NCBI GenBank assembly: GCA_964354545.1
Contig: CAYHAE010000008.1
Location: 1 to 48,464 of the forward strand
From: an uncultured Planctomycetia bacterium
Lineage (GTDB): Bacteria; Omnitrophota; Gorgyraeia; 2-01-FULL-45-10; JAHFGN01
Direction of reading: 5' to 3'
Length of the DNA stretch: 48,464 bases
Below, one piece after another: positions 1 through 41,857 of this stretch; position 1 is the first letter of the stretch; every line of letters begins with the position of its first letter. A program made the translations under genes and the position numbers. The notes below the pieces were generated by a model. It worked only from the letters and a program-made list of their open reading frames with translations, did no database searches and was not told the DNA's origin.

Positions 1-3000
1 TGGGACTTCACGGGGTCGAGCCCTAAGATGACGTCGAGGTTGAGCTCTCCCTCGTTCAGCCTTCTCTGCAAGAGCTTCTCATAGAGTCCTTTCACCATTG
101 GATAGAAGTCGTCTCGTGCGGGGTTGTCCCCGTAGGGGACGCCCTGCACGTTGCGTTCCCGCGGGGGGCTGTCGATGAGGAGCGTCATCACGATCGCGAG
201 GTCGAGTATGCCCGCCCACGGATAGACGTCCTCCTCGCCTTCCTGCCTCTGCCTATCGTCGATGGCGAGGACGCGGTAGTCGCCGTAGTCGCGGCCGTCC
301 GCGACAGTGGTGATGAGGAAGCCGGGCCTCGGCTCCTCGAGGCCTTCCTCCCGCAGAGAGTTCCTCGAGAGCGTGGAGCGCGTCCTGTACATCTCCTCGA
401 GGCGCTGCCGTAAACCCTCCCTCTTCCCTGAGAGGCTCACGAACTCGAAGCGTATGGGGTTGGCGCTGAAGCGCGCGTTCAAGCGCCTCTCCTTGAGGGC
501 GACGATGTCGGCGAACGTTTCGAGAAGGCCCTCGTCGCCTTCCCGCGTGAGCGGCAGCATGTCGACGTTGACGGCGACGGTGCGCGGGATGACCTTATCG
601 GTCGGCGAGCGCGACCGCGCGACTGCCTTTATGATATCGCGTGAGCCTTCGAGGCTCGAGAGGGTCATGTATTCGAGGGTAGAGAGGGCCTCTGCCGTGG
701 CGCGGGGCGAGGGCGTGGCGGGCGTGCGCACGAACCTCAAGAAGCGGATCGTGCCGCGGACGACCTCACCGGTCTCCTCGCGCGCTATGGCGACGCCTTC
801 CTCCGTGGCTGCCGGATAGGAGCCCGCCTTGTCGTAGAGGCTTCCGTCAATGGGCTTAAGGATGAAGCGCTCGCCGCCCACATCCCAGGCGACGGAGAAA
901 CGCTCTCCGTCTCCAGAGGTGAACGTCCCCGAGAAGTCGTCGGGGAACGCAGAGAAGTCATAGCTCACCCTGTCGGGAGCCGGCTGAGCCTCCTCGATGA
1001 GGCGCGCGCTATCAAGAAAGTCCGTCTCATCATATCTTCCACTCGTGGACTGGCGACCTTGCTGCTTTCCGGGTAAGTCGCCGTCCTCGATACTACTACC
1101 CGAGGAGGACTGGCGCCTGCCAGCTTCACCGTCCGTAGCCGTCCCCGAAGGGGACTGCCGCTCGCGAGTTTCACCTTCCGTAGGCGTCCCCGAAGGGGAG
1201 GTGCGTGTCTCAGGCGGTCCTTCTCGCGTCGAGCGAGATTGTCCCTCACCCGCTTTTTCCAAATCCGAATCCGGCCCTCGCGATCTCAGGTTTGCCAGGA
1301 AAGCTCCCAGAGCGCCAAAAACAGGCACGGAGAGGAGCAACAATGGGTGCGTGACCCCAAAGGCATAATGCAAAATAGCGATATAGAATACGAAGAAGCC
1401 GGCAAACGCACCCATCCCAAAGCCGGTAACGGTCCTTGGCAAGAACTCAGAGCCCTTCTCGGACCCTTTGAGATTCGCCAATAATACCCAGACGATAGAC
1501 CATGGCATCTCGACCACTGATATGCTCGAGACCATCTCCTGGGCTGTCGCGGTCCGGTTGAGATTGAAATACTGTATGGGTATCCATATGAGCCAGCACA
1601 GGACTATCGTTGTAAGAAGATTCCATTTGCGCTCTCTCCAGATCTCTCCCGCGATCATCCGCGGTGTCTTCATTGACGCGAGTTTCTCCTTCAGGGATAA
1701 TCCTTTCAGCTTATCGTAGAACCCGGAAACGAAGAAGGTCCAGAGGATGCTGGATGTCGCGCCCGCGGTCTGGTCTGTGAAGACCCTGAAGGCCTTGCCT
1801 ATCAGATGCGTGTTAGGTATGAAGTTCAGGTAGGCGACGTAATACCAGTTCCACACTATCCCAAAAATAAACCCGTAGACGAGAGCCGCTATCGCGATCT
1901 TTTTATAGTCGAGCTTCTCCTGGTCCCCTTTTAAGATGCCGAAGACTTGAGACAACAGTTCCCCTATGCCAAAATAGATCGTCGTGTTCACGTAATAGGG
2001 TATCGCACTCAAGATCACCGGGAAGCAGAAGTTCGCAAGCACCGCGAATAAGGCGGTGAGGCCGATGGACACGCCGATGACCGCATTCACATGCCCTTTC
2101 ATTACATTCAAGATCCTGCCGGACAAAGACGGGATCTGCGGCCTGTCGACCTCCCCGGCGACGTCTAGCGAAGGTTCGTCGCGCCGCTCTTCTCCGCTCG
2201 TTGAGCCGCGCGGCTCAGGTGGCCCTTCCCGCGTCGCGCGAGACCGCTCCTCGTCTTCACGTTCGCTTTCATCGTGACGGGGTGCGGCTGTTTTAGCAGT
2301 TCCATTTTTATAAATGAACAATACGAGCGGGATCAACCATGAGAGCAATGCATAGGGGTGGAGGTTTGTCGGCTGGCCCCGCAGTTCAGACGTGAGCACA
2401 TCGTACACGGAGAGGCCTAAGGGTATTATCGCTGAAAATAAGACGTGCCAGGTCTTGATGTTAACCAAGGGGCCCTGCCCTTGCGCGGGGCCTTCATCTG
2501 AACCGCTCGTTGAGCTCCTCCGGCCTTGTTCAAGACGGTCGCGCAAGATGGCCGGCGTCCTATTCTCGGTATCGGTGCGCCGTTCCCTCCTGCGCAAGGA
2601 GAGGGTATTGTAGCCCCATCCCTCCCGTTTCGAAAGGAAATCCGAGGGCTTCGTTATCGTCATCCCCTGCATCCCTCCGAGCGCTTCGAGCTCCGGAGTG
2701 GTGACAGGGACAAAGTCGCTCGAGAGGAAATCGTGCGAAAAGAGATGGTGCCCGGTATTCCACGGGGAGGACGAATCCTCTCCGAGCGTATATCCTCCCT
2801 CATTGAGATAACGCTGCTGGAGCTCCGCTACGGTCCACGCGGTCAGCTCTTCTGCATCTCTCTCTTTATCCATGTCATAATGAGGCGCCTTCTCCATGGC
2901 GATCGACACGCCCTGTTCGAGCAATTTTCGCAGGAGGGCGGGGCAGTGTTCTTCCGATGTGGTCCTGCGCACATCGAATGAACCGAAGAAGTATATGGTC

Positions 3001-6000
3001 CTCTCCTTCGGCGCCTCGCCCGGGTAGGCCCACGTGAAGCGTATCCTCCATATATCCTGCTCCTTGTCGATCGGCATTATCATATACTCGCCTCTTGCGA
3101 GGTCGAGGTACTCTTCGAGGATGAATTCCATCCACAGCCTGCTCGGCGCCAGATGGCTGAACGGCGTCCCCATCAGGTTCGTAAAGATCCTGTCCGTCTC
3201 TTGATCCCTCACCATCGCCGGCCTTACCTTCGCCTCGAACTCGTACCTCTTCTTGTTGCTCACGGGCCCGAATCTGGACTTTTCAATGAATATCGCCTCC
3301 GTGAAATCGGTGGCGAGGAGCGCGTGGTGGACGTCGGTGAACGAGTTGGGGTAGAAGAGCCTGGAGTTCGACCCGTCAGGGTTCACCACCGCGCGTATCT
3401 GTCTTAAGAACTCGAGTTTCCTTTCAGAGAAGAGACGCCTGAGCCCGTGAGGCCATTGCGGGGCCCCCCTCGTCGCTTCGCTCCTCGGGACTCCGCTCCT
3501 TGCGGTCGCGTCGCCGCTCGTCGAGTGACGGCCCGTCAAGGGTGGCCACGACTGATATTCCTTCCCCAAAACTAAATTGAACTCGCTCAATCTGTCTTTG
3601 GCCGTGACAAGAACTCTTCCATTATATGCGCGGTCAAATTGCCCGTACGTTATGTCGACGACGATCTCGTCGTCGACCAGGGCCAAATAGTGGTCCCGAG
3701 AAACGATCTGGTTCGATACGTCGGAATATCCGCGATAGCGCCCCTCAAATAAAGCCACAGACCTCCCTTTGAACAATCCGTTAAATGCCGCGCAGAAGCT
3801 ATTGTTCGCGTGAGCGCACATCGTACCTGAGGGGTCTTCCGAATCTCCGTCGGGCTCTCCTGCAGAAAAAGACCTTTTCAATTCCGCGAGCGCCGAGAAT
3901 ATCGCGCCATTGTCCTGATTCAACACCTCGTCCACACGAGAGAGAGTGATCTCGCCGGGTGCGAGGCTGCGAAGCTTATCTGCTATCACCTGCGTCAAGG
4001 CATCCCGGTGACTCTGCACCACATATCTTTCTCCTGTGCTCGTCCCGCTTGTGGAACCCCTGCTTCCGGCATCGCTGAACCCGATCGCGCCCTTCATCCA
4101 CTCTATCATGGGACTTTCCGCTTGATAGAAGGGACGCGGATGGGGAGAGTCTTCAGTCCCATCCACATACCACTGGAGGTTCATTATATCTACGAAACCC
4201 GCTGACTCCGGACCGACCGTCACGCCGAAGTAATCCTCGAGGAGCGCTATCTTTTGCTGATCACTGCATGACGTCATGATCTTATACAGATCATGCAGAC
4301 GGTATCCCAGAACCTGGTTCTGGTTGAGACCCCTCGTCCTTAACGCATTATCGAGGTCGTGGAAGAAGATCCTGTTATCGCAGTAGGAGATATTCGCAAA
4401 ATGAGGGAACATATGGATAAAACCGCTGTCGTGGAACCTGCGCAGCTCGCGGCCGACTTCTCTCACGACAGCAGGTTCGACGTATGTCGTAAAGTCGAAC
4501 ACGCCTTTTACTAGCCTCTTATCGAATTTGTCCTCTAACCCGAGGATCACAAAACCTACTTTCTGACCGTCAAATTCCATCCCTGTATACTCGCCGTACC
4601 CTATAGGGTACGGGACATTGAGGCCTGCCGCGATGCATTCAGATGCTATCTCAAACTCGTTCTGCGCCCTCTTAAGCAGCATCGTCCCTGTCGGCCTCTC
4701 CTCGGCTGTTGTGAATAATCCGAGCCCTTCGTCCGTCATCTCAAATATATCCGTGGGCCTGCCTTCACCCTGGTAATCTATCATCTGCGGCTCTCTGTCT
4801 ATCCCGCCGTAATGGTCTATCACTCCTTTGAGCCGTAAGGCGACTTCTAAGAAGTATATTTCTTTGCCTCCCACTCGGATCGGGTAAGGCAGGTCGATTA
4901 TAATAGACCGCCTTCCGGACGTGCGGTCATAGCGCATATTCTTCCAGCTCGCTGCCTCTCCTATCTTCCTAATGATCGATTCCGGCAGCACGTCGACAAC
5001 GTCCTTGGCGATATGTAATTTCACCGGATGCGGACCTTCGATGTCAAATTCCTGGAGGGGCCTTGCGCTGCCGCTCGCCGAACCGAGCGCATCCGGTCCT
5101 GAGTCCGCGCCCGAGGTGCTCGACCGGCCGCTCCCCTTCGTGCCCTTCCCCTCCCGGTCAATGGTGCTTCTGCCCGCCGCGTCCCGCGCCCGAGCCTCAG
5201 CATCCGGGGCCTGCCCTTTTCCTTTATCCTTTATCCCTAATATATCGAACCAGAATCTCTCTATCTCATCTTTGTACCGCTCGGCGACCTTGTCGAGGGA
5301 GTACTGGAAAAAGAGAATGAAGAAGAATGTCACAAAGGCGCTTAGGAAGGCCTGCCAGAGAGGCGCCTTTTCCCCGCCGAGCACGGCCGCTATCGTCAAC
5401 GCGGAACCGATAAGCGGGACGGCTATCACTTTAAGGAAGCCAAGCGCCTTGCGGAGAAATGTCCGACCGCCGCGCTCGCCCACCGCCTCTTCCAATCCGC
5501 GGCTGAGCCTCGAGGCGATATCGTCCGCCTGGTCTTCGAACGTGGTCGTGCTGGCCGAGGCGGGGTCCTGGGGATCGACGGAGGCAGTGATGTCAATGGC
5601 GAGGAATTGGACCCCATGCCGTGAGAGGTATCGCACATCGTTGACGATGCGCCGCGTGGTCTTTGCTATCTCCTCTTCGGTCGCCCGATGGCTGTTCCGC
5701 GGATCGACCCTGTCCTCAAACGACACGTAGTCGCCGTCGACGGTCGCGAGGGCCGGGCCCTTGAGCGTGCCGGCGAGACTCTTCGCATCTACCACTATGC
5801 CCTTTATGATCGTGCGGAACCCGTACCTCACCGCAAGCATGACGCGGTCGCTCATGGGAAGCACTACCAGCCCATCCCTTACTTCGACAGTCCCCGTCTC
5901 CCGCGCCGCATACCACTCCGGCACGATCCAGTAGACGCCGCTTATGAGGCCCTCTTCCGCAGCCCTTCTGACCCAATTATCGCCATTCACGTCTCTTCCC

Positions 6001-9000
6001 AGGGACGAACTGTCCGGATGCCTGTCGTAGAGGATGAGGGGCAGGCCTCTCGGTATTCTACCGGCCTCGACCTCCTCCTTGAGCCACCAGTAGAATTCGT
6101 CGTGGAGTACGCTCGTGTGAAGCCGGCCCGATGTGCTCGCTCTGCCCTGAGGACTTTCGCTATCACTGCGCGCAGACCCTTCTTCTGCGCCATCGGATCC
6201 ACCCTCCTCTTGAACCTGTGCCCTCATGCGGTTCGACCGCCATCCGAGGAAGATCTTCAACAAACCGTAGCCGGCGAGCACGGTGCCGGCGGCAGTAGCA
6301 ATACTCCAGCCCGCAGGCCCTGCAAGACCTTCCGCGGGGAAACGCTTCGCCGGCCTTGCAGGAGGCACGCGGACAAAAGTCCTTCGGGTGACTATGACAT
6401 TTGGTTCGGTCTTTTCCGCTGTCACATCGGGTTTCTTGTGACGGGCGATCATGAGACCGTTCGCGACAGGCCGGCCTCTGTGGAGGACCAATCTCTCCTG
6501 CCTCACGCCATGATGGATGCGGGCCACGACGGACCGTGAACTGCCTCCGTCGAGCGCGATTGCCTCGACCGCTCCCATACTTTTAAGGATATGTGCGGCC
6601 TCATGGAAGGACACGGCACCTCGCGCCGCGTGCAGCCACACGAGCAGGGCCTTCCCTTCTTTTGTAGTGCCAAGCACCATCCGGTCTGCGCTCGTCAATC
6701 CCGCCAATCTCTCCTCGACGGCGTTCACATAGACCTTTCCATCCATTATCAATCGAGGGCCTGCCATGAGGCCGTGGACGACGCCCTTCTCCTCCCAGCC
6801 CGGAGGAAGCGACCAGTGCCTCTCTATTTTGCTCCCTTTGGTGAAGGAAGAGGCGTATCTCCGCGCGCTTCCGTGGAACGAGATGACAAACCCGTCTTCG
6901 GGTATCTCGGAATTCCCTTTGCCCTGACGGACCTCGTCAACCTCATGCCGCATCGATACCGAACCGTCCCGGCGAGTACGGGAATGCTCCCTCACTATTA
7001 TCTCAATCCCGTAGTCGCTCGTCTCAGTATGTTTCCCATAAGCGGGGGTATAGACGACAAAGCCGTTCCGGCCGCGGGGCACGTTCACGCCGTGCACGAT
7101 GAAGTCGTCCCCGGCTTTCTTTGACGTGGTGAGCCAGTATTTCGGCATTTCGTCCGGTGAAGAGATGACCACCTTCGCAGGTTTTCCGGAAGACGGCTTT
7201 GTAAAACCTGCCATGCTTCGATGAATATTTGGCAGATTGAATACCAATACCTCCCCATCTTTCAGCACAAAGCCGATGGTCACTCCCGTGCGCAGGTCGA
7301 AGAAACCGCCGTTGACAGCGCCTTCCACGGTGAGGCCTGTCTCCTTCTGGAAGGAGGCTACCATAGCCTCAAGAGGCGCCGCTTCGAGCCCCGTCTGCCC
7401 ATTGGGATGCGTCGAAGGGACGATCTCGAGAGTCGTATCCCGGAGGTCCGCTGTAATGCGGTGCGTTTCGATGTATCCGTAGTGGCCGACACCGTAGTCA
7501 ACAGAATCTAAAGGATAGCCCGCGTGCACCTGAGGGGCAGCCCTCGCTGCGTCCTGACCGCACAGGCTCGCAGCGCCGACGAGGCCGCCTAGGGCGATGA
7601 GAAAGCCGCGTCGGGTCATCGGTGCCGCATACTCTTCCATACGGTCCGCGATCTTTTCAAGAATGTCTTCGACTCCGCTCGTCGAAAGCCTGACCTGCGG
7701 GAAGATATCGTTCCTTTCAGACAGAGCGACTATCCTTGGCCGCACGATCCCCACGCTCCTGTCCATTTCGCCGATACTGAAAGGCAGGGCTCGAGAAAAT
7801 CTGTTCCCCCGCTGCCATACTGTTGCAGCCACATTCCAGCTCAAGGTCTCCTCTGCGATCTTCGCGAAACCGGAATACATATGGAGCATGAAGAGCGGCA
7901 TGCGATCAAGGAAGTAGGGCACGAGGGAGCGCTCGTTCGCGTCCACCGTGAAGAGGAACGCGCCCTCCCTCATCTCCGTGAGGTTGCGCGCCATCTGCAT
8001 GATCGCGGCGTCCGACATGAGCGACAGCACATTGTTCATGAAGACTACATCCGCGGACCGGAGGCATGCGACGGTCAGAGGATCGAGCAGGCTTGCGCAG
8101 GCAAAGCCGAACGTCATGCGCGCGCGTATCTCGGGAAGCATCCGGTTGACAAATGCGAGCCCCTCGCGTGTCTCGGGCGGTTCTGTCCCTTCGACCGGGA
8201 AACTGGTGACCACATTCCGGTATGCCGCGTCGATGGTGCGGCTGTCAATGTCGACTCCCATCATGAAGAACCTGAGCCGGTCTATCCACCCTCTCCACCC
8301 GGGGATCCCCTTTGCCGCGTCCAACATCACTGCCCCGGCAGAGGCGAGATTGCACCCATAAGAAGACCCCAGGTCCAGGACCTTTATCGCGATGTCCCCT
8401 CCCCCGAAGCTCCGCAGGACTTTAAGGAGGTTCCGCCGGAACAGCTCCTCAAGGTAGCCGAGCTGGACGGGGTACCTCATCACCCACGAGCCGGTCTTGT
8501 TTCCCGCGATCCTCAGAAGATCGTGGAACGCGGGCGACTGGAGATCGACGAGATCCTGTGCGTACCAATGGGTGTCGCCGCCGTACACATTCCACAGGGT
8601 CTCCGAACTCGCTATCTGGGCCACCGCGTGGCCAACAGGATTACCCACGGTATCGACGAAGCCGGAGCCTATCCGCTGGAGCGCGGCAGATACCGCGGCG
8701 TAGAGGTCCTTCTCTAGAATAGCAATCGCATTGGCCTGGCCATGCACGAATGGAATGGACCCGCCGAAAACGCCTCGTCCGCTGGTCGATATCGCACCAT
8801 GGGGTACCTCATCGAGGACCCTCTCGACCTGAGCGCTCAGATGACCGCTTGTCGAGAGCCGTGTGTGCTTTTCGTCATGTTCGGGCCGGACCTCAGTGAA
8901 CGCTCTTAAGTATCCAAGCGCCGCATCGCGAACCCCAGAGTTTGGATGTTGTGCTGCCCGTTCCAAAAACCTCCTGCCGCTCTCCCTATTCTCTCTCGCT

Positions 9001-18000: not shown

Positions 18001-21000
18001 CCTTCCAGCACTCCCTCTTCGTCCTGCGCCAGCAGGCTTATATATTCATCCAGGTAGGGAGTTTCTTGCGGATCGCGGTGTGGTGCAATTTTTTTCAACG
18101 CCTCCTGGATAGCCTTATCATGCACTCGATTTTTCTCGGTGAGCACCTTCAAATACTCATCCGCAAACCAGGCCATCATCCTTTCATCGGTTCCCTTATC
18201 CGGCGCCGGTACGTCTATGAACGGTCCTATCGCGCGCTTTTTCGCAAGCTCGCGGGAAAACTCCCTTATGATGCGCGCCATGTCATTATCGGTGTAGCGT
18301 CGCTTCGGGACGAATATATCGCCCTTGCCGCCTCCGTAAGGGACCCCGATAACGGCGTTCTTTATGCTCATCAACGTCGCAAGTCCGGCCGCCGTCTCTT
18401 CCGCTTCTTCGGGAGTATCCCCCTCTCCGACCAACCATCGCAGACCGCCCTTCCCTGCGCCGCGCGCGTCGTTCTGCAGCACTCTGAACCCCCACAATGA
18501 AACCGTATCTCCGTCATCCAGAGCAACCTTGAAGTGCACTCTTGTCACACGCTTCGCGCTCAAAGCCTTTCTTCTTACAGCCCAGTGAAGCTTCATCGTG
18601 TCGGCGGCCCGAGCGATATTGTCCTCAGCCGCTTCTAATATAGTAAGAGGATGAACGGCCGACTCCTTCCGTGAATACAAAAGCGTCGATGTGGTATGGG
18701 GCGAGCCGACGATCGAGGCATAGCCTGTTTTGCGCTCTACCTCATCCGGGGTCACGATCTTATTGGAGGTATCGATCAATGATAAAATGTGCAAGCCCGT
18801 CTCCGACATCATGGAATTAAATTTGGCCGTAAAATACGTATCTGCATATGCAAAGTAGTCGGCGACTTTTGAACGTTTTCCCTTTGAGGTTACTTCTACA
18901 AGAAGGTCTATATCGGACAGAGGGCCGATCTCTTCGGGTAAACCGCGGTCGATGCTTCCGAACAACCAGATCTTTAATATCCCGCCTGTACGGGAGCCTG
19001 CGTGATCTGCCACAAACTGTGAAAGGACATCCCGGAAAACGCTGTGCGCTGACGGATCGGCTGTCGTGAGCAATCTTATAAAGGCGTCCTGATTTTCGCA
19101 GCCTAACTGTGAAGACGCTTTGGCAAGGCTTTCTTCCCATATCGTATCGAACTCTGCGTGTAGCGATTTCTTTAACGAAGCGGCGAGGCCGAAATAGCGG
19201 GAAAAGGAGAATTTTTTCAGGCGGCCTTCATCTCGTTCTGCCCCCGAGGTTGACTGGCGACCCTGCTGCTTTCCGGGTAAGTCGCCGTCCTCCACAGTAC
19301 TACCTGAGGAGGGCTGCCGCTCGCGAGCTTCTCCATCTGTAGGCGTCCCCGGAGGGGACTGGCGCTCGCTCGCATCACCATGAGTAGCCGTCCCCGGAGG
19401 GGAGGAGCGGGTCTCCTCCGAACGCTGTTTCAATAAAGAAGAGAGGAGGGCCTTGATCTCAGCGGGTCGTACCGCTACGTTACCATCTAACTCAGGTTCA
19501 TACCCCACCTCCGCGATATGGAGCCCGAGGATCCTGCTACCCGCAAGCCTTCCGGAAAGCACCTCCCGGATCGCCTTGAACGTCTTGACATCGGTATCAA
19601 TGGAAAGGAATACGTTCTCATAACTCTTCCCTGCCCCCAATTCAAAGGCGATGCCTCTTGCCTCCAAATCCTGCCGGACCTCATCAATGTGCCCGGTCCC
19701 CACCATTCCGGTCAGTGTATCTTCCCAAAGGTCCCAGTTCCCTACGCCGAGTATCGTGAGCCGGCCGGGAGGAACCACCTTATGCTCAATACCATAAAGC
19801 CAGAAGCCGCCGTTCGTGAATTTCGTTTCGTAACAGTCGGTATGCTGGTCCGGAGAGATGATATCCGCTTCGACACCATATATGCGGTTCAGCGCATCGT
19901 AGAAAGGCAGAGAGAGCATATGGGCCCCGCCCATCACGACAGGTATGGCCCCACTCTCTTTAGCTTTTCGGATATGGTCCATGAAGAAATCTACCAGCTC
20001 TTCATAGACCCGTTCTTCGTCGGGGTGCATCCAGTTCGCGTTTATCTGGGCGACGTCTTTTCGCAGCGGGCCTACGGGATGCTCGGTCGTTCGGACCTCG
20101 CCCTGCTCAAATAACGGGAACGACAGAGAAGAGGGCATCAGTCCCATCTCGATCACATAGAATGCCTGCCCTTGCCCCGCAGCCGGTACCCCGCTCGTCG
20201 AGCCTCGCTGCTTCTCCTCAGGGCGAGATCCCGAGTCGGAGCGAGGGATCGACTGCCGCTCGCGCGCTTCACCGTCCTTAGGCGTCCCCGAAGGGGACTG
20301 GCGTTCTGCACCAGGTGTTGGTTCTGGAGGTACAATCGTCTTTGTGAGGACACCGTGTCCCCCTATATCGACCGTCAACAGAGATACGCCGTCCGCTTTC
20401 AGGGTGACATGCCGCGGTTCGGGGGAGAGATTGGTGACAAGGACAGTATCTGTCCCTGCATGCCTCACGAGAACCGCGCCTATATGATCATTGTCGGTGG
20501 TGAGCGCGTGGAATTCGGCGCCGGCCCGGACCCACGCAGTGATCGACTCAAGGAGCCCGTCATGGAATTCCCGGAATTCGAGGTTCCCATCCCGTCCCGC
20601 GTCGAATTCACCCGGTCCGGGCTCGCCAAACATGAACGGGACAGGGCTCAAGACGCCGAACCTGTCCGGACTATATTCCATGACACTCGTCCGCATGAGG
20701 TGCGTGAGGTGGAGGATCAAGAATGCCGCATACAAAGCTTTCAGTTTCGCGATCTTACCTTTGTCGTCGGCAACGTCGCGGACTAAGGCGGCGAGGCTTC
20801 CATTATATTGGGACTGATCGTGGTTGTTGAAATACATGAGAAGTCGCTTGTTGCCTCCGAGGCTCCAGAGCCTGCCCTCCAGGGCGTTAGTGAGCCACCT
20901 GTAGGAAATAGATGCATGGGCAGCCATGAGGTCGCGGATCCCTCCGAAGTAGATCTCATCGAAAGGATATTGCCGGGCAGGGTCTTCCCACTCAGCGACG

Positions 21001-24000
21001 AGCGTCTTTATACCGTTACCTCTCAGGAGCATGGGCAGCACGGGACTTATCTCGCCCCCGAGGTCCAGCCGGACAACAGGAAATCCGACGGTCCTTACCC
21101 ACCAGATGAGCTGAAGGTCAGCCTCCGGGTTCCTGTCGTCTATCGCGTCATCCCATGTCTTTATTATCTCTTCATGCCCCCGCCACCATACCCGGCTGTA
21201 GTCCCCTTCGCTCAGAGGGTGGCGACCGTCAAAGAACGAACCTGTGTGGCTGAAGACCGCGTCGTACGCCATGTCGACTCCATATGCCTCAGCAACTTCC
21301 TTCAGCCGTCTGAAATCGTGCGACGTACCGGCCCACGATGCGAACGCGATGGGTGAATAGGTACAGAGCATGTAAGGACGGCTTAGACACAACGTACCCG
21401 GATTCAACAAAATACGGTCATAAGATCGTGCGAGGCGGGGGATCTCTTCCGTGAGCCACTGGACGGCCGTCCTGCCCGTTGCCTTCAATTCTTCCCACGG
21501 CGCTTCGAGGAGGAGGTTCATCTGGAGCGTGCGCTTCCCGCGGTCGGGCACTGTGCGCGCGCGTTCGTGGAACTCCTGTTTCGGATAGACCCTTGCGAGC
21601 GAATTCCATGCTCCGTCAATGTCACCCGACATGGGGTCGTTGAACCATATATCATAGGTAACCACTTCACCCTGCGCGGTGCGCACGGGAATACGGATGT
21701 TGAACTTGTACCCGAAATGGCCCTCAGGAAGCGCAACACACCACGTCCACTTCTTGAGCGCCGCATCGTATGCCACGGGGCGGCGGAGCTGCTGCCATCC
21801 TTCTTGAAGAGCAGCGACACCTTCTGGAGGCTGGTCCACGCCAATCCTGATGTCACCCCTCGACCAAGGCCGTCCTGTGAGGAAGTTCCCTCGCAGCGCG
21901 AGGCATTCTTCATGGGTGCGCACGTAATCGATAACTGCCTGGAGCACTGCCTCGCCGAGCCCCTCCGGATTTCCTTCCGGCGCTCTGACGTTGAGAATCT
22001 CGGCGAGCTGAGAGATCCTGTCTGCCCTGCGGGTAAGCTGTTCGCGAAGGGCCCGCTCCACACCCTCTTCCGTCAATGTGAACCGGACACCGCTGTCGGT
22101 AGCCTGAACGTTGCCCGCAACAGCATAGAGGTCCTGGTAGCGCACCTCGCCCTTGAATTGTTCCCACCGTCTGCGCCACTTCTCTTCCTGGGCGCTTATG
22201 AACACTTCGACTCTTTCGTCCCTGACGCCGCCGGCCTGATAGACGTGTGCGAGAAGGCTTACGAGGTGCCAGGGTGCCCATACAGTATCAAAATCAAGAT
22301 CGTGATCCCATTGCCCGATATAAAGGACGAGCGCATGAAGTTCGAGGTATCGATACGGTTCGTCCGCAAGCCGCCTCTCGAGGTCCTCCGCGGCCTTTCG
22401 CAGGTCATCATAGGTGATATCCGTCCCTCGCCCTGCGGCAAGCGAGTCGACGAATCCCTTGCAGAGAGTTTTGAATTCTTCGGGATCATCAGGGCGGGGC
22501 AGTGCGGGCAACGCACGCATGAGCGCCTCATTCGCCTTCCCCTCTCTCACAAGATCCCTCAAGGCCTTTAAGAATGCCTCATCGTCACGCTCTCCTGCTG
22601 AGCCGGTGGTCGAGGCGCGCGGCGAAGAGCCTGTCTCCTTGTCCGCGGCGAGGACCCGCGCGCAGATATCCCGTATCTCATCGTCACCTGTTGTCGCGAC
22701 GGTGAGTGCAAGCCGCTCCCGAACTTCATCTGAGATCGTAAGAGTATCCACTCGTATCGACCTTATTACGATATTCTTTAAGATCGACCTCTGGAGTTCG
22801 GCATCCCTCCTGATGAGCCTCATCCCGACGCCGGTGAGCCTGTCTGTGCCGAGGATCCCGAAGATCACGTCGGGCAGGCTCTCGAACGGCTGGCCGCTGG
22901 TCCCGCTCGTCGAAGAGCGCGGCTGCGCCTCATCTGTCTCTCCCCGGCTCCCCTCCCCGATGATCTCGAACTTGACGTGCTGTCGCGAGAGGTCCACCTC
23001 TATCACCCTTGCCCTGTAGAGACGCCTCTCATAACCGGGCCCGGATATGTTATCGTACAGGTCATCGCATCGTATCACCCGGGCGATCCTGGAGGCGGGG
23101 ACGAAACCGGACGTGGTGCGGCCGCCGTGCGTCTTCGCGGTCACGACGATGCCGCTCTGCTTTCCGGTCTGGCTATTGAACCGGACGTCGTGGGCAACGA
23201 CCGTCATTTCAGCGCCTAATCTAAAGGATGCCCTGAAGTCTTCCGCATCGATCGGCCCTCTCTCGCCAGAGCTACGAGGCGGCGCGCGTCTTTCGCCTTC
23301 GCCCAACAGGACCCCGAGCCTCTTGACCATCTGCTTTTTCGAAGGGTCAGCCGACACTTTCTCGAGAAGCCCTTGCATCTTGGATCTCGCTTCCTGTCCA
23401 TAGGGGCCTGCGAGCAGGTGTCGTGCCGCAGGCACGACGTGCCCTTCAACAAAGGGACCCCTTGGATCATTGAGGGCAAAGGCAATGTCGTATGCGGCAC
23501 TGCGCGCGGCAAAGCTGCTCTTATCCGAAAGTGCCCCGACCGTCCTCTTCGCGAACTCGCGGATATCCTCTCTCTCGTTCGTGAGCAGGCCCACGCATCG
23601 GCTGACATCGGTCTGCTCGAGCCACAGGCGTGCGCCGGAAGCCGCCTCCCGCGCGACGACCCCATCGGCTTTCGCCAGCACCTCTTCCAGCGTCGGCTCG
23701 ACCGAATCCCTGACATACGCGGCATTGCGATCCCTGAGGGCATACGAGAGGTTGGCAACCGCGGCGATCATCGCCACGACGCCGCGCCCGGCGCGCTCGA
23801 CGATGGTCCTCCCCGCAAACGCCTTCACTCCGGGGATCTCAACCTTCAAGAGCCCGATACACTGTCTTATGACCTCCTCGTCAGGAACATCAACGAGAAG
23901 TCCGACGGCTCTTTCCTGTTCCTCTCTCAGTGCCGCGATCTCCATATCCGTGAGCGCCCGGCACTCTCCGGGTCCGAGCCCTTCAAGCGCTATCGGCCCC

Positions 24001-26858
24001 ACCCGTACCCTTGTGAGCGCGGTCACCGAATGACCGATCGCTCTCATCAACTCTTTGACCTCGTGATACTTTCCTTCCCGTATCGTGAGGAGGATGACCG
24101 TTCTCGGATAACCGGATGAGCCTGTCTCCCGTATCGAGTCGTCGTGAAGGATCTCCGCAGCCGCAGGCTGGCTTTCGTACGCGCGATCTCCCGCCCTGCG
24201 GTCATGGAGCCGGATGCCTCCACGCCGCAGTCTCTCAATGCCTGCTTCGTCTACATCACCCTGCACGACCACGCGATACGTCTTTTTCGTATGCGTCGCA
24301 GGCATGATGAAATGCGCGAGCATCTCCGCATCGTCCGTCATTATGACGAGGCCGCCGACATCGTAGTCGAGCCTGCCGATCGGATACATGTCCTCTATGT
24401 CAACTCCGTGGGCCTCAAGCACCCCATATATGCTGCGGCCCATCCTCCCTTCCTCGTCTTCGGTGGAGACGACACCCAACGGTTTATTCATGAGGATATA
24501 TCGATGGGCTTCTACGCCTGACGTGCTCTGGCGCTCGCCAGCTTCTCCGTCCTTAGCCGTCCCCGGAGGCTGGCGCTCTTGCTTGTCATCAGGCAAAGCG
24601 CCGTCCTCCATCTCACTTCCTGAGGAGGAGGACTGCCGGTCGCCGGCTTCACCGTCCGTAGGCGTCCCTGGAGGCTGGCGCTCTTGCTTGTCGTCAGGCA
24701 AAGCGCCGTCCTCCATCTCACTTCCCGAGGAGGAGGGCTGCCGCTCGCCGGCTTCACCGTCCGTAGGCGTCCCCGGAGGGGATTGCCTTTCTTGAGCTTC
24801 ATCTTCCGTAGACGGCGCATGAAGTCCCTGTGAAAAGGAAATAAAATCTTCGCGAAAGATCTGGTTTAGATCTATGCTTTCAAACTCTGCGCGAGCCTCT
24901 CTCAGCGTCTTCCTGACGTCTCTGTCAAGCCACGGTTCTTCCAAGATCATACCGATGTAAGCTTCGGAGGCAAGCAAGTTTCTCATGTCGTGCCACAGGT
25001 CCCTGATTATGATGGACTGGATCTCGTGCAGGTCCTTGATGGCTGAGTGCGGTGAGAGCCTTACGGTAAACGCGGAACCCTTCCCCACCTCGCTCTCGAC
25101 GCTCATCTCGCCGCCCCAGTGCTCTATCAATTGCGTCACCAGATAGAGGCCTGTGCCGCTGCGCAGGACATGCTCTCCCTCAGGGGCGATGCTCCCCATA
25201 AATTTGTGTGTGCCGAGCTGCGGGATGTCCTCAGGAGTGATCCCGACACCCGTATCTCTCACCTCTATCACGACATGAGGGTCAACCCTGTACGCCCGGA
25301 CGTAGATCCGCCCCCCCTGTTTGTTATATTTCACCGCATTCGTAATGAGGTTCTTTACCATGGAGCAGAAGACCCGCCTGTCTCCCGTCACGGTGAGGGC
25401 GGTATCGCACGTGACCTCTGCTATTAAGCCGCGTTCATTCATCGATCGCTTGTTCTCGTCGATGATATGAGCGATAATCGCGGCGACATCGAGCTCCTCC
25501 ATCGTCGAGCTCCCGTAGGGCAGGTCCTCAAGGTCTCCCCTGTACTCCTCGAGCTTATCCTGCAATTTATGAGCGCAATCGATGACTACCCCGAGCCATT
25601 CGAGGACCCAGTTGGCTACTTGCTCTGGCACGACTATCTTCTTTGTTTCCAACCCGCGGCATATCGTGCTCGCTCTTTCTGCGATGTCCTCGAAGACGCC
25701 CCTGACCCCTCGAATGGTCACCTCGACGACGCGGATGCCCTGTCCGCGCCGTATGAATATCTGCTCTATCTCCTGCCTCCTGTCAACGTTACCTCCGCGC
25801 AGCGTTCTACCCTCGATCCTCTCCAAGATCGCCTCCAGGCCCGCGAGGATGTCGTCGAACCCTTCGGCCCCTGAACCAAGCATGGCATCAAGACCACGCG
25901 CGGAGGTCGCATAGTACTCCGCTGTCTCTCCGTCTTTCTCGAGTCTATGTAAAAAGGCTTCGGCGGCGCGTCGATGCACCACGTCTGTCGCTGGGAAGGG
26001 TTTTTCAGATGGTGAGCCCGTCGAATCCGCTCCGCTTGTCGAGCCTCGTATTTCCCCTGCTGGGCGAGATCCCGAGCGATAGCGAGGGGTCGACTGCCAC
26101 ATGGATGCTGTTTCACTATCTTGAAGCGCCCTCAAATGGTTCTCAACGATCCGTGAGTCGGCAAAGAAGATGCGGGGCATGATCACACATGAGGCATCAG
26201 GATGGTCTTCGGCCCAGAAGCGCAGTTCAAGGGGGAATATCGCGCTGTGCGCGATGACGGGCGCGGGGACCCTTGCGCCGATGGTATCCCTGTATCCCTT
26301 TAGCTGGCGCGAGGTATCAGGGATGAGAAGTGCGGGGAGGCCGAGCGATTGGGCGAGCTCAAAGGCGCCCTTATCGATGGGGTACCACGCACACTCGTCC
26401 GCAAGTTGGGCGCGCAGGACCCCGTTATCTCGCTTCGGAGAGGCTTTCGGGATAGGACGGCCCTTCGTCTCCTCGTCTTTATACACCCCTATCACTCCAT
26501 CGTGAGAGATGTGCGCCTGGTAGGACCTGCCCTGTATGGCGCAGGGGACGAGGTACGAGTCTCCCTTAGCGGGCTGCTTCCTGTCGAAGTATACTGCGAT
26601 ACCCTCTTTCTGCTCGTTGAAAGTGCCTTGGAGGCGTGCGATGTCGATGCGCGAGGAGCGGATGAGCCAATCGAGGTACCACTCGAGCCTTCCCATCTCC
26701 CTCCTCTCGGGATCGGGGGCATTGACTATGCCGGGCGCCCTTACGTTGCTATCGGGGTATGCCCAGGAGATGTCGTAGGCGATAAAAGTGGCTATGAGGA
26801 CGAGGGATATTGTCCTAATTATGAGGCGAATTTTTTTATTATCATTAGCATATATCAT
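1..26858 (-). CDS. Giant multi-module protein (>=8,952 aa, 3' end beyond the left edge), putative polyprotein with RxSTSG linkers
   Basis: Manual translation of the minus frame (codons at + positions 3k..3k+2) from ATG 26858 ([36 protein letters not shown]...) to position 3 (...[12 protein letters not shown]) shows no stop. None of the minus-strand ORFs listed in 1-26858 lies in this frame, as expected for an edge-open ORF. Many intact enzyme motifs fall in this frame. Confidence 0.96.
   Translation of the reverse strand, partial: [8952 protein letters not shown]
1038..1250 (-). repeat. Linker repeat cluster (RTSPSG, RQSPSG, RQSSSG, RQSTSG)
   Basis: The 63-bp segment 1050-1112 matches 9957-10019 with 1 mismatch and 19254-19316 with about 6; contains TCCCCGAAGGGGA hairpins. 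Confidence 0.9.
1285..2090 (-). other. Giant protein domain: Mpv17/PMP22-like polytopic membrane domain
   Basis: GIGELLSQ...KLDYKKI...[13 protein letters not shown]...FTDQ...[13 protein letters not shown]...[10 protein letters not shown], with extra TM helices on both sides. Confidence 0.68.
2590..3400 (-). other. Giant protein domain: divergent Rossmann/methyltransferase-like domain
   Basis: [26 protein letters not shown] and YLNEGGYTL resemble class I MTase motif I and the LxxGG motif. Confidence 0.4.
3600..3840 (-). other. Giant protein domain: transglutaminase/papain-like Cys-His-Asp domain
   Basis: GTMCAHAN (Cys 3816-3818), DHYLALVD (His 3690-3692), VVDITYGQF (Asp 3654-3656). Confidence 0.72.
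4230..4900 (-). other. Giant protein domain: protein-kinase-like fold (RIO/Kdo/WaaP-like) with atypical catalytic loop
   Basis: [15 protein letters not shown]...[37 protein letters not shown]. Confidence 0.7.
5290..6120 (-). other. Giant protein domain: UPF0489-like (arginase/deacetylase-fold) domain plus two TM helices
   Basis: [42 protein letters not shown]; hydrophobic segments at about 5300-5440. Confidence 0.65.
6240..7619 (-). other. Giant protein module: internal Tat-like signal + phosphodiester glycosidase (NAGPA family) + C-terminal TM helix
   Basis: [99 protein letters not shown]. Confidence 0.88.
7800..8420 (-). other. Giant protein domain: CheR-like SAM methyltransferase
   Basis: [53 protein letters not shown]. 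Confidence 0.72.
8885..9760 (-). other. Giant protein domains: ComEA-type helix-hairpin-helix DNA-binding domain followed by HEAT-like repeats
   Basis: VNCA...LLRIVGF...AEIVRTR...[19 protein letters not shown]; then [18 protein letters not shown] and [14 protein letters not shown]. Confidence 0.75.
9855..10115 (-). repeat. Linker repeat cluster with tandem GTCCCCGAAGGGGAC palindromes
   Basis: Copies at 9898-9912 and 9914-9928; shares segments with 1050-1112 and 16078-16127. Confidence 0.9.
10150..10700 (-). other. Giant protein domain: divergent CheR-like/class I methyltransferase fold
   Basis: [44 protein letters not shown]. Confidence 0.5.
10915..12100 (-). other. Giant protein domain: FkbO/Hyg5 (Rid/YjgF superfamily) chorismatase-like
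   Basis: [64 protein letters not shown]. Confidence 0.9.
13920..14460 (-). other. Giant protein domain: class I SAM methyltransferase, PrmA-like
   Basis: [37 protein letters not shown], FNIG. Confidence 0.75.
14780..15260 (-). other. Giant protein domain: low-molecular-weight protein tyrosine phosphatase / ArsC family
   Basis: CX5R(S) loop [10 protein letters not shown] at 15210-15239, [17 protein letters not shown], KVFLL...DTPD. Confidence 0.85.
15987..16140 (-). repeat. Linker repeat cluster
   Basis: About 15998-16049 is nearly identical to about 20252-20303 ([19 protein letters not shown]). Confidence 0.88.
16185..17040 (-). other. Giant protein domain: uridine/nucleoside-kinase-like P-loop domain (degenerate)
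   Basis: [57 protein letters not shown]. Confidence 0.8.
17165..18640 (-). other. Giant protein domain: complete Glu/Leu/Phe/Val dehydrogenase (glutamate dehydrogenase-like)
   Basis: [110 protein letters not shown]. Confidence 0.95.
18690..19000 (-). other. Giant protein domain: minimal nucleotidyltransferase (MNT / pol-beta superfamily)
   Basis: [10 protein letters not shown]...SDIDLLVEV (hG[S]x..DhD signature). Confidence 0.8.
19242..19410 (-). repeat. Linker repeat cluster
   Basis: RSSPPGT / ERQSPPGT / RQPSSG / [16 protein letters not shown]. Confidence 0.88.
19440..20160 (-). other. Giant protein domain: arginase/agmatinase (ureohydrolase) family
   Basis: [16 protein letters not shown] (DxHxD), VFLSIDTDV (SxDxD), ILGLHIAEV. 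Confidence 0.82.
20190..20305 (-). repeat. Linker repeat cluster
   Basis: ERQSPSGT...[19 protein letters not shown]; the second part also resembles about 26031-26098. Confidence 0.85.
20340..21900 (-). other. Giant protein domain: CBM48/AMPK-type carbohydrate-binding module plus GH13 alpha-amylase-family domain
   Basis: CBM: [16 protein letters not shown]...IWFNDP...DGAWNS. GH13 conserved regions: [18 protein letters not shown] (I), VVRLD (II), LVAEW (III), YFNNHD (IV). Confidence 0.85.
22960..23220 (-). other. Giant protein domain: S1/OB-fold-like RNA-binding domain
   Basis: GIVVTAK...[10 protein letters not shown]...[17 protein letters not shown] resembles the S1 pattern. Confidence 0.45.
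23925..24505 (-). other. Giant protein domain: RsuA/RluB-family pseudouridine synthase catalytic domain
   Basis: [13 protein letters not shown], catalytic [49 protein letters not shown]. Confidence 0.92.
24516..24800 (-). repeat. 105-bp (35-aa) tandem linker repeat, about 2.5 copies
   Basis: AGGCAAAGCGCCGTCCTCCATCTCACTTCC at 24591 and 24696; unit [14 protein letters not shown](D/E)RQ(S/P)[17 protein letters not shown]. Confidence 0.92.
25040..25460 (-). other. Giant protein domain: histidine-kinase ATPase (HATPase_c)
   Basis: N-box [11 protein letters not shown], G1 VRDTGVGI, G2 SGTGLYL, and [24 protein letters not shown]. Confidence 0.9.
26760..26858 (-). other. Signal-peptide-like N-terminus of the giant protein
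   Basis: Basic n-region KKIRLIIR, hydrophobic [13 protein letters not shown], then DISWA|YP (S-W-A before a possible cleavage point). Confidence 0.65.
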
Positions 26859-39777: not shown

Positions 39778-39810
39778 GCGTCCCTTTTATCTCCTATGCT
39801 TATTAAGGCA

Positions 39811-39838
39811 ATTATATCATGGCGATGTCAAAATACAA
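39811..39838 (-). promoter_or_regulatory. Possible sigma70 promoter for pilM
   Basis: TTGTAT, 16-nt spacer, TGn-TATAAT. Confidence 0.45.
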
Positions 39839-39876
39839 TGGATGAGTAATGAGAAAGTCCCTCGCGAGCGATGTCC

Positions 39877-40605: not shown

Positions 40606-40624
40606 TTTTAACAGTGCCTCAACC

Positions 40625-41820: not shown

Positions 41821-41857
41821 TATAGGGCATCCTTTCCGACTATTGTAACGTGAACCG

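Follow-up and report, generated by a model that had tools for sequence, protein, structure and literature searches.

In one clade of Omnitrophota, purifying selection maintains a short linear peptide motif, R-x-S-[T>S,P,A]-[S>T]-G. Its carriers are modular giant proteins in which a variable string of unrelated enzyme cassettes lies between two conserved caps, a hydrophobic anchor at the N-terminus (..F.AYDISWAYPD) and a module with its tail at the C-terminus (..L.AA-COOH). The motif appears, from residue composition and domain matches, to be confined to disordered linkers between the modules of these giants, and it may be a site at which the chain is cut. Here, we describe the motif, its carriers and the readings that can be put on it, starting from one such giant in a stretch of DNA of 48,464 nucleotides, the window.

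The giant is encoded by a 26.9-kb open frame on the minus strand (3-26858). Its end aligns about 35 aa before the stop of a homologue in a related genome (G002), which puts it about 35 codons short of its C-terminus; the full protein would thus have about 8,990 aa, of which 8,952 are seen. The frame, its caps and its modules are as follows.

3..26858, minus strand, giant ORF of 8,952 aa with ATG at 26858, stop-less, running past the contig end
26754..26831, minus strand, N-terminal hydrophobic anchor or signal ending ..FIAYDISWAYP, aa 10-35, on giant ORFs across the order
26091..26753, minus strand, N-terminal domain of unassigned fold, aa 36-256, common to a few giants, AF2 mean pLDDT 66
25053..25382, minus strand, HATPase_c module, aa 493-602 (Pfam)
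24042..24500, minus strand, PseudoU_synth_2 module, aa 787-939 (Pfam)
19587..19994, minus strand, arginase family module, aa 2289-2424 (Pfam)
17160..18554, minus strand, glutamate dehydrogenase module, ELFV_dehydrog_N and ELFV_dehydrog, aa 2769-3233 (Pfam)
14880..15242, minus strand, LMW phosphotyrosine phosphatase-like module, aa 3873-3993, bit score 22.3, just under the curated cut-off of 23.2
10911..11699, minus strand, chorismatase FkbO N-terminal domain and L-PSP/RidA module, aa 5054-5316 (Pfam)
9564..9719, minus strand, weak HHH_3 module, aa 5714-5765, E 0.002, under the curated cut-off
7536..7619, minus strand, internal Tat-type signal-like sequence MTRRGFLIALGG...ARA, aa 6414-6441, ahead of the NAGPA module
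6447..6932, minus strand, NAGPA phosphodiester glycosidase module, aa 6643-6804 (Pfam)
3..956, minus strand, conserved C-terminal family module, aa 8635-8952, recognized by alignment with kin, incomplete at the contig end

In total, 11 Pfam families of unrelated functions are found on the whole protein (hmmscan E<=0.01), and nine other giants of the same genome carry the same kind of enzyme-family mix. The pseudouridine synthase module aligns from residue 62 of RsuA, and therefore lacks the S4 domain. AF2 places a helix at aa 3-31, overlapping the N-terminal anchor. The AF2 model of the N-terminal domain has no fold match in the PDB (best E 0.45), and the N-terminal 270 aa have no homologue at E<=0.001 among proteins of 474-2000 aa, a narrow length range that makes this a weak test; a protein-atlas search gave one weak lead, with a score of 0.76, to an Omnitrophota cluster. 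The C-terminal module matches no Pfam family, and its AF2 model (pLDDT 46.8) is unusable.

The genome of the window measures 2.23 Mb and is 99.7% complete by marker count. Four of the five confirmed kin loci with the same N-terminal region belong to Candidatus Omnitrophota/Omnitrophica MAGs and the fifth to an 'uncultured Planctomycetia bacterium'; among our sampled genomes these loci correspond to G002, G023 and G001. The genome can thus probably be placed in Omnitrophota by the kinship of the carriers of its N-terminal domain. The family members observed span 2,000-9,000 aa, and contigs break at repeated giant-gene sequence. A sequencing-run search found no RNA or protein run holding the locus; two DNA runs contained small shares of it (0.10 and 0.07).

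A sequence-only reading of the window had listed 19 exact RxSTSG copies, and all of them are indeed present, at the coordinates given there, in the single frame of the giant, with G, Q, S, E, L, A or H at x. A rough estimate from assumed residue frequencies gives about 0.01 exact copies by chance in 8,952 aa. The variants named in that reading (RASTTG, RQSSSG, RKSTPG and several RQSPSG) also occur. By the generalized pattern the protein has 27 sites, 19 of them exact. The exact copies come first below and the variants after them.

26031..26048, minus strand, RGSTSG, aa 271, within an AF2 segment of pLDDT <50 (aa 256-280)
24516..24533, minus strand, RQSTSG, aa 776, final unit of a multi-unit linker, 5 aa ahead of the pseudouridine synthase domain
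22902..22919, minus strand, RSSTSG, aa 1314
20190..20207, minus strand, RGSTSG, aa 2218, directly ahead of the arginase-fold module
19242..19259, minus strand, RQSTSG, aa 2534
14736..14753, minus strand, RQSTSG, aa 4036
13839..13856, minus strand, RESTSG, aa 4335
12126..12143, minus strand, RGSTSG, aa 4906, ahead of the chorismatase/RidA module
10869..10886, minus strand, RGSTSG, aa 5325, 8 aa past the L-PSP domain end
9855..9872, minus strand, RQSTSG, aa 5663
8844..8861, minus strand, RLSTSG, aa 6000
7674..7691, minus strand, RLSTSG, aa 6390
6126..6143, minus strand, RASTSG, aa 6906
5109..5126, minus strand, RSSTSG, aa 7245
4044..4061, minus strand, RGSTSG, aa 7600
3513..3530, minus strand, RHSTSG, aa 7777
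2502..2519, minus strand, RSSTSG, aa 8114
2193..2210, minus strand, RGSTSG, aa 8217
1038..1055, minus strand, RQSTSG, aa 8602, final unit of a four-unit linker ahead of the C-terminal module
24771..24788, minus strand, variant RQSPPG, aa 691, upstream unit of the linker ending at aa 776
22602..22619, minus strand, variant RASTTG, aa 1414
20286..20303, minus strand, variant RQSPSG, aa 2186, upstream unit
19347..19409, minus strand, variants RSSPPG (aa 2484) and RQSPPG (aa 2499), upstream units of the linker ending at aa 2534
15987..16049, minus strand, variants RQSPSG (aa 3604) and RQSSSG (aa 3619, 15987-16004)
13872..13889, minus strand, variant RKSTPG, aa 4324
10005..10022, minus strand, variant RQSSSG, aa 5613
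1098..1205, minus strand, variants RTSPSG (aa 8552), RQSPSG (aa 8567) and RQSSSG (aa 8582), spaced 15 aa

Is it the peptide or the DNA that is conserved? The sequence-only reading had argued for the peptide from the mixed serine codons, and codons of the TCN and AGY families do each occur at both serine positions. Further evidence comes from in-frame sites one mismatch away from the DNA core TCGACGAGCGG: the change is synonymous, keeping STSG, in 24 of 27, as against a neutral expectation of about 21%, and the three non-synonymous sites encode SASG, SSSG and STTG. The peptide is therefore under selection, and a pure DNA repeat or a decaying scar is ruled out. Moreover, for 87 of 162 sites the flanks show no relationship to those of any other, and these 87 comprise 84 distinct 18-mers. 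The DNA nevertheless retains traces of a shared history. Base composition alone would give 1.6 occurrences of the core, whereas 46 are found, and a 15-aa (45-nt) periodic unit, RQS[PT]SGT[PA]T.GE.GE, recurs in the linkers, one flank cluster comprising 66 sites. TCG or TCC encodes Ser3 in 75% of sites and AGC encodes Ser5 in 60%, whereas the background share of AGC is 26%. Such codon preferences, unlike the background, indicate that the copies share a common DNA ancestor, which fits a spread by linker duplication.

The proposal that the motif is enriched in giant proteins was borne out by a six-frame scan of the whole genome. Frames of at least 1000 aa (144,079 aa) contain 91 exact RxSTSG copies, whereas all shorter frames contain four, namely three in frames of 300-999 aa (492,291 aa) and one in those of 100-299 aa (916,674 aa). 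At least two sites are present in 21 of the 44 frames of at least 1000 aa; a 33,581-aa frame of the same genome has none. The claim that copies lie between domains and never inside one also held as far as Pfam matches reach: in 10 giant ORFs, none of the 117 generalized sites overlaps the best stretch of a Pfam match, compared with 13.2 expected (P ~8e-7), where Pfam covers only 11% of these proteins. In keeping with a linker setting, order-promoting residues make up a fraction of 0.175 of the motif flanks and 0.339 around random positions. The further claim that the motif marks nearly every module boundary was overstated. Motifs do lie between modules, but some segments between motifs hold several domains: aa 2540-3603 of the window protein is motif-free over glutamate dehydrogenase plus its flanking regions, and on contig C33 no motif separates DUF218 from a methyltransferase or AlaDH from a metallophosphoesterase.

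The linkers have an internal order. Each carries one canonical RxST[ST]G at its C-terminal end, adjoining the next cassette; where more units precede it, they resemble RQSPSG and follow one another at 15-aa intervals. In the 25 multi-unit linkers, the last unit has TS or TT in 23, and 29 of the 31 earlier units have PS, SS, PA or PT. Domains start 5-30 aa past the motif, the pseudouridine synthase at +5 being an example, and in this genome the median segment between linkers is 370 aa long. Regions of paralogous homology also tend to end here, since 139 of 254 HSP ends fall within 40 aa of a motif (50 +/- 6 at random). Some segments begin with what resembles a targeting sequence: in 19 of 44 segments the first TM-like stretch is reached within 80 aa of the preceding motif (7.5 expected), and four of these 19 are Tat-like (R-R/G-x-F-L/F), one with a lipobox. 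The sequence at aa 6414-6441 of the window protein, which we take to be a Tat signal from its consensus, begins 18 aa past the end of the motif at aa 6390. We also considered whether translation might start internally behind the motif and rejected this: across 111 sites, Met shows no enrichment over the following 60 residues (the best 10-residue bin has 26, with 22.4 expected).

Motif discovery in relatives, which the sequence-only reading had suggested, revealed lineage-specific forms. In an unbiased pattern scan, R.S.SG ranked first in four of 14 sampled genomes, and its fourth residue is mostly T in G000, S in G001, S or T in G002 and A in G023. The motif recurs at orthologous boundaries, after the N-terminal domain and before the C-terminal module. 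The other 10 related genomes have giants with the same caps and without a repeated linker motif, and a 4-of-6 pattern scan gave no alternative there. Thus, the family as a whole does not depend on being processed at such a site.

Is there an enzyme that reads the motif? Profile searches of the genome gave no match for Peptidase_S8, C14, CHAT or C11; Peptidase_C80 also had no match, but its control matched in no genome. Four partial C39-like matches (profile positions 44-130) lie on giants of contigs C25, C1 and C3 bearing 0 to 2 motifs. Trypsin_2 matched one ORF of 284 aa at C1:100817, near the giant of that contig, and nothing in its neighbourhood ties it to the motif. In Pfam scans of 10 motif-bearing giants, signal peptidase II was the sole peptidase, and a search of the genome for Hanks-type kinases (PF00069) was negative. 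The N-terminal domain seemed to co-occur with the motif, and was dismissed as a cognate enzyme because the representatives P0005 to P0008 have the domain without the motif; it also gave no match to a protease-like fold.

We tentatively read the motif as a possible proteolytic processing site, the giant being a polyprotein precursor that releases its cassettes as separate enzymes. A trans-acting factor would read the motif, by our guess an endoprotease that would cut in or beside it, and some of the enzymes set free may start with a Tat-, lipoprotein- or TM-type targeting segment of their own and would then use it. Linker polarity and a genome-specific fourth residue kept across unrelated linkers point to a reader. 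We also count in favour of this reading the selection on the peptide, its concentration in giants, its position outside domains, the ends of paralogous homology near motifs and the targeting-like segments behind them; the kin giants without the motif, the negative protease searches and the codon traces of common descent speak against it. A fuller version, in which RxS[T/S/A]SG is the maturation signal by which cap-cargo-cap chains of ~1 MDa are cut into ~20 enzymes, with a protease specificity co-evolving with the fourth residue in each species, is somewhat more doubtful. The TM or Tat-like internal segments could also function uncut in a polytopic protein.

Selection and position fit equally well a protein that stays uncut and in which a kinase, glycosyltransferase or other enzyme acts on Ser/Thr of the motif, protecting or stiffening the linkers or regulating the neighbouring cassette. 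An Arg two positions ahead of Ser/Thr hydroxyls in a disordered linker rich in P, T, S, G and E would suit such an enzyme, as would the exchange of S, T and A at positions 4 and 5 around R, S3 and G, which are invariant by the search pattern, and the giants themselves include glycosyltransferase- and kinase-type cassettes (Glyco_tranf_2_3, PfkB, PFK). Nevertheless, we consider modification unlikely: the search for a Hanks-type kinase in the genome was negative, position 4 takes Ala and Pro in relatives and upstream units, which leaves Ser3 or Ser5, at most, as an acceptor, and modification alone does not explain why the canonical form is placed last in 23 of 25 linkers. The evidence of common descent suggests another account, in which the motif is the best-kept part of a 15-aa/45-nt element spread by cassette duplication and shuffling, with no dedicated reader. 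The periodic unit, the 66-site flank cluster, the excess of the DNA core, the differing Ser3 and Ser5 codon preferences, the ending of paralogous homology at linkers, the contig breaks at repeated giant-gene sequence and the motif-free giants of the same architecture in kin all agree with it. However, a passive linker has no need of an exact hexapeptide whose near-core changes are mostly synonymous and which is kept at 87 sites with unalignable flanks, and polarity within linkers and the genome-specific fourth residue point to a reader; this account is rather doubtful. No less doubtful is either role that such a joint might play, as an in-frame, flexible, protease-tolerant link or as homology for cassette exchange, and for the latter 84 distinct 18-mers would be a poor recombination substrate.

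Finally, a chaperone, translocation motor or scaffold might bind the motif without cleavage and handle the cassettes one after another while the giant is made, inserted into the membrane or exported. In favour of docking are the single canonical copy that each linker places right before its cassette, the TM and Tat-like segments after motifs, and the common N-terminal anchor and C-terminal tail, which suggest a shared handling route, and SecA-like domains are described on Omnitrophota giants in the available text of an earlier report (10.1101/2023.11.21.568195). However, our searches yielded no candidate partner, no SecA-type family appeared in the Pfam scans of the 10 giants, and the motif is missing from the giants of kin that share the caps; we consider docking very unlikely.

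The multi-enzyme giants of Omnitrophota rank with the largest proteins known, and whether they act as one chain or as cut pieces is a standing question. With the motif, concrete candidate junctions can be defined from sequence for the first time: some 130 linkers across one genome, and 27 generalized sites on the window protein. Whether or not cleavage takes place, it shows how the genes are built, from cassettes of ordinary size, a selected linker element, and a conserved N-terminal anchor and C-terminal tail, and it offers a rational way to split giants for structure prediction. If the polyprotein reading is true, gene fusion followed by proteolysis would be an alternative to operons for enzyme co-expression in a cellular organism.

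Several known systems invite comparison. In viral polyproteins, such as those with picornavirus 3C sites, and in multi-core RiPP precursors, such as cyanobactin PatE, a short recognition sequence is repeated at each cargo junction; there the protease is known and is encoded in cis or next door, and the cargo is a few viral proteins or peptides of ~8 residues, as against ~20 full-size enzymes here. P97/P102 adhesins of Mycoplasma hyopneumoniae, a surface-protein family, are cut at S/T-X-F|X-D/E in disordered regions; they have few sites each, are not enzyme strings, and their motif is unrelated to RxSTSG. Multidomain glycoside hydrolases have disordered, O-glycosylated inter-domain linkers rich in Pro, Thr and Ser, but these are conserved in composition only, with no exact hexapeptide of fixed Arg and Gly.

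The sequence-only reading knew of no characterised bacterial system of this form, which was too strong: as far as the available text of these sources goes, MARTX toxins are processed (PMC2900308), and giant multi-enzyme proteins of Omnitrophota have already been described, with cleavage suspected and no cleavage points known (West-Roberts et al., 2023, 10.1101/2023.11.21.568195). The same text describes 'Archaeovorins' of >30,000 aa, with 46 genes over 90 kb, and that of a later report highlights 'multi-enzyme metabolic clusters' of 10 kaa and above (Nielsen & Lui, 2026, 10.64898/2026.06.07.730766); the present giants, at 2-9 kaa, are smaller than both. By kinship, the described giants belong to the phylum of the window genome; they likewise tile unrelated enzymes (HEAT repeats, methyltransferases, sugar-phosphate enzymes, signal peptidase II and a histidine-kinase-type ATPase, in the text available) and share with the present ones an N-terminal signal or TM segment. 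The window protein differs in a Pfam scan by lacking the SecA-like, C39 and S8 domains mentioned there. Neither report, in the text available, mentions conserved caps or an RxSxSG linker motif, though the supplements of both could hold relevant domain maps; linkers are absent from the 2023 text, and linkers, cleavage, polyproteins, disorder, motifs and fusion from that of 2026. A literature search of limited coverage found no link between Omnitrophota and polyproteins and no RxSTSG, RxSxSG or STSG peptide motif.

MARTX toxins, as described in the available text of two reports, have conserved N- and C-terminal regions around a variable string of modular effector domains (PMC5218395) and have their processing sites at Leu residues of the unstructured stretches that separate these domains (PMC2900308). 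The likeness lies in the conserved ends, the variable modular centre and the position of the candidate sites, which here also fall in disordered inter-module segments. Unlike the hexapeptide, a MARTX site consists of one Leu, which an InsP6-activated cysteine protease domain reads in cis; at hmmscan E<=0.01 the window protein has neither Peptidase_C80 nor an RTX-type repeat family. The MARTX caps are glycine-rich RTX-type repeats, whereas those described here are a TM anchor with an uncharacterised domain at one end and an uncharacterised C-terminal module at the other. The host here is an uncultured Omnitrophota bacterium, and the cargo, in contrast to toxin effectors, looks like ordinary metabolic and housekeeping enzymes.

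The giant ORF lies on contig C8 (the window), one of 102 in an assembly of 2.23 Mb that is 99.7% complete by markers. Searches with Pfam and against PDB sequences have revealed that this ORF carries unrelated enzymes in series:

3 to 26858, minus strand: giant ORF of 8,952 codons with an ATG start and no stop, reaching the contig end
Module in the giant ORF: histidine-kinase-type ATPase
Module in the giant ORF: RsuA-like pseudouridine synthase catalytic domain
Module in the giant ORF: arginase-fold domain
Module in the giant ORF: glutamate dehydrogenase
Module in the giant ORF: low-molecular-weight phosphatase-like domain
Module in the giant ORF: chorismatase/RidA pair
Module in the giant ORF: HhH motif
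Module in the giant ORF: NAGPA phosphodiester glycosidase

According to an alignment with a homologue in a related genome, about 35 residues of the conserved tail are absent. The strand of the giant also carries, upstream of it, ordinary housekeeping genes for PgpA, a PgsA-type transferase, a MiaB-like protein, RodZ, FtsK, BacA, dUTPase and PNPase, and no protease gene adjoins the giant ORF in the window. Also on this strand, 10 kb upstream of the giant, is a type IV pilus or T2SS-like cluster (window 36778-48403) consisting of a PilM/N fusion, a PilO-like ORF, three prepilin-type ORFs, PilC and PilB; secretion or pilus machinery is described as recurrent beside giants in the accessible part of one account (10.64898/2026.06.07.730766).

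The 19 exact copies of RxSTSG that the sequence-only reading had located in this ORF, together with the variants it named, are all in place and in frame, and their serines use both Ser codon families, as it had noted. An enrichment in giant proteins, for which it had proposed a test, is borne out by a six-frame genome scan: 91 exact copies lie in frames of at least 1,000 aa (144,079 aa), against 3 in frames of 300-999 aa and 1 in frames of 100-299 aa, despite ten times more sequence in the smaller frames. The few matches outside giants are contig-edge fragments, off-frame ORFs or chance matches within conserved enzyme motifs. The loose pattern R.S[STAP][STA]G has 162 sites in the genome, 161 of them within 21 of the 44 frames of at least 1,000 aa. 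Contig C3 of the same genome (1-100743) is a single 33,581-codon frame that spans the entire 100.7-kb contig, is open at both ends and has two C39-like matches; neither RxSTSG nor the loose pattern occurs in this frame, which is thus a different class of giant within the same genome.

Where does the motif lie with respect to the domains? In ten giants, none of 117 sites overlaps a Pfam-matched stretch, against 13.2 expected at a Pfam coverage of 11%, in agreement with the claim that the motif is never inside a domain. The related claim that nearly every module boundary is marked is overstated: with boundaries taken from Pfam and PDB matches, which span less than half of the protein, some junctions lack the motif, and several of the segments between motifs comprise two or three domains. 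The glutamate dehydrogenase is found within a 1,060-aa inter-motif segment (window aa 2540-3603; 16050-19241), with about 230 aa before the enzyme and about 370 aa, including a P-loop-like GPKTSGK, after it; since this segment has no internal motif, it may be one multi-domain unit. The 12-residue flanks on each side of the motif are poor in order-promoting residues (0.175 versus 0.339 at random positions; 0 of 10,000 draws of 19 random positions gave a mean that low), and the single linker modelled lies in a segment with pLDDT < 50. Folded domains start shortly past the motif: the pseudouridine synthase begins 5 residues beyond one, where RsuA's catalytic domain starts, and the end of the RidA domain is followed by the next motif after 8 residues. 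When sites less than 60 aa apart are merged, the genome has 130 linkers, and the segments between them are of ordinary protein size (median 370 aa, interquartile range 264-539).

Alignment of all sites has revealed a 15-residue period, RQS[PT]SG-T[PA]T.GE.GE. Clustering by flanks places 66 sites, from tandem linkers, in one cluster and leaves 87 singletons, the flanks of which are unlike those of any other site. The linkers have a clear unit polarity: in 23 of the 25 multi-unit linkers the final unit, which adjoins the next enzyme cassette, reads RxSTSG or RxSTTG, and 29 of 31 earlier units show PS, SS, PA or PT at positions 4-5. Is the motif a peptide signal or a DNA repeat? The most frequent DNA core, TCGACGAGCGG, is present in 46 copies where 1.6 would be expected, and codon preference differs by position and is unlike the background, Ser3 being mostly TCG or TCC and Ser5 60% AGC; this excess and these distinct preferences indicate that the copies share descent. 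Conservation at the protein level, as had been claimed, is nevertheless evident in their decay, as 24 of 27 in-frame sites one mismatch from the core still encode STSG, when about 21% would be synonymous under neutrality; the other three encode SASG, SSSG and STTG. Since the decay is nearly purely synonymous and the 87 singletons comprise 84 different 18-mers, purifying selection must act on the hexapeptide, the surroundings of which drift.

The N-terminal 40 residues of the giant consist of a basic stretch, a hydrophobic helix and ..F.AYDISWAYPD (window aa 10-35, 26754-26831), a signature that heads frames of 2,000-7,000 aa in 23 of the 41 genomes of the order, this one counted. It defines a family of 'capped' giant proteins, the complete members of which have a common C-terminal tail ending in ..L.AA, both within this genome and across the order:

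N-terminal signature, consensus ..F.A[YQ]DI.WA[YH]PD: giants of relatives (loci L011-L026) and many contigs of this genome
C-terminal tail, approximately hydrophobic-x-P-x(5-7)-[DE]-x(3)-[YF]-x(7)-L-x-A-A-stop: contigs C31, C41, C23, C4, C74 and C91 of this genome; loci L011, L013-L018, L020-L024 and L026 of relatives

The nonpolar ..LxAA C-terminus presumably resembles ssrA-type degrons. The cargo between the caps differs, and BLAST between giants of the genome has shown that cassettes are common to giants in different contexts and that the homology stops at the linkers. HSP ends fall within 40 aa of a motif in 139 of 254 cases against 50 +/- 6 at random, a count that linker-to-linker HSPs inflate, and a cassette at window aa ~5304-5682 recurs on C4 with all four HSP ends 16-26 aa from a motif. 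A cassette block of ~1,300 aa (43-53% identity) is present in two copies on C78 and one each on C91 and C49, all of which start and stop at motifs. A giant of 6,909 aa on C33 includes a signal peptidase II (Peptidase_A8) cassette (ORF aa 1118-1251), between two motifs. Contig ends fall inside near-identical giant-gene sequence: the last residues of C8 (window 3-110) match those of C88, and the first residues of C49 match those of C91. The assembly thus stops at paralogous cassettes, and the real proteins may be of greater length, or connected in another way, than assembled. In G010, a related genome without the motif, three family members of 5,108, 4,768 and 6,266 aa are arranged head to tail (contig C3, ~109.6-158.4 kb; L013-L015), two of which are nearly identical in the first ~60 and last ~70 residues after the anchor.

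How far does the motif extend among relatives? A few family giants from 14 genomes were compared. In line with the suggestion that relatives might have lineage-specific linker motifs, an unbiased scan for any pattern with four fixed residues of six ranked R.S.SG first in this genome (G000) and in the related genomes G001, G002 and G023; the same scan gave no comparable linker pattern in the other ten sampled genomes. The fourth residue is T in 121 of 161 sites in G000, S in 10 of 10 among the matches listed for G001 (looser [RK].[STA][STAP][STA]G scan), A in 5 of 7 in G023 and either S or T in G002. Two orthologous junctions are alignable across genomes, and the motif recurs at both, after the N-terminal domain (RGSTSG, RRAASG, RQSASG and RRSSSG) and before the C-terminal module (RQSTSG, RDSTSG and RQSLSG). 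A cassette that is also present in two motif-less genomes has ordinary flanks in these, without the motif. A profile of the N-terminal domain matched only 8 proteins among 1.84 billion representatives at E<=1e-10. Seven of the eight span nearly the entire domain: three are G002 and G023 proteins, and the other four have the domain and lack the motif. The relatives with this domain are mostly titled Candidatus Omnitrophota MAGs.

The linker motif is real and unusually sharp, its range is narrow and its function is putative. Selection on the exact peptide, the polarity and the genome-specific variants argue for a reader protein and not for a passive linker. Proteolytic processing at the motif is the single most likely reading, a tentative one that, taken by itself, is less likely than not; its rivals are a modification site, a linker or recombination joint, and a docking site. 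In its favor, one canonical copy stands immediately before every protein-sized cassette. In addition, 19 of 44 segments, where 7.5 would be expected, have their first hydrophobic stretch at most 80 aa past the motif, and of these 19, four are Tat-like and one has a lipobox, as called by hydropathy and pattern alone. Signals of the Tat or lipoprotein type are normally N-terminal, and their position past the motif would favor processing over modification, docking or a joint. The Tat-like segments inside giants ([ST]-R-[RG]-x-F-[LF] and a hydrophobic run), with twin-arginine cores ~4 to 51 residues past the motif end, are as follows (aa in ORF coordinates):

Window 7536-7619: Tat-like segment
C52, aa ~913: Tat-like segment
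C43, aa ~3765: Tat-like segment
C26, aa ~865: Tat-like segment with a lipobox (LTGC)

An uncut giant would also be in topological conflict, which, on the basis of the positive-inside rule and the hydropathy scan, favors processing: the basic residues before the N-terminal anchor would leave enzymes of cytoplasmic type, ~6,400 aa in total, outside the cell, and the Tat-like signal before the NAGPA cassette would require the same ~6,400 aa inside. Several points count against processing. No cognate protease was found by protease-family searches of the genome and Pfam scans of the giants, the N-terminal domain is not tied to the motif and gave no protease-like fold match, kin giants manage without the motif, and internal Tat-type signals work uncut in some polytopic proteins. 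Residues downstream of the motif show no enrichment of Met, which makes internal translation starts there unlikely.

Giant multi-enzyme proteins of Omnitrophota are already known as 'Archaeovorins' and 'multi-enzyme metabolic clusters' (10.1101/2023.11.21.568195; 10.64898/2026.06.07.730766), and the accessible parts of these accounts describe the same cargo types as in the present giants, namely HEAT repeats, methyltransferases, PFK, PfkB, transaldolase, alanine dehydrogenase, radical SAM, GT2 and signal peptidase II. The same parts, supplements aside, make no mention of the linker motif or of the N- and C-terminal caps. The linker motif makes cleavage of Omnitrophota giants a testable question. 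The MARTX toxin is the closest characterised system in its mode of working. Its defining protease domain and repeats are absent from the window protein in a Pfam scan; as far as the accessible parts of the sources describe it, the toxin likewise combines conserved ends and modular cargo with processing in unstructured inter-effector segments (PMC5218395; PMC2900308).
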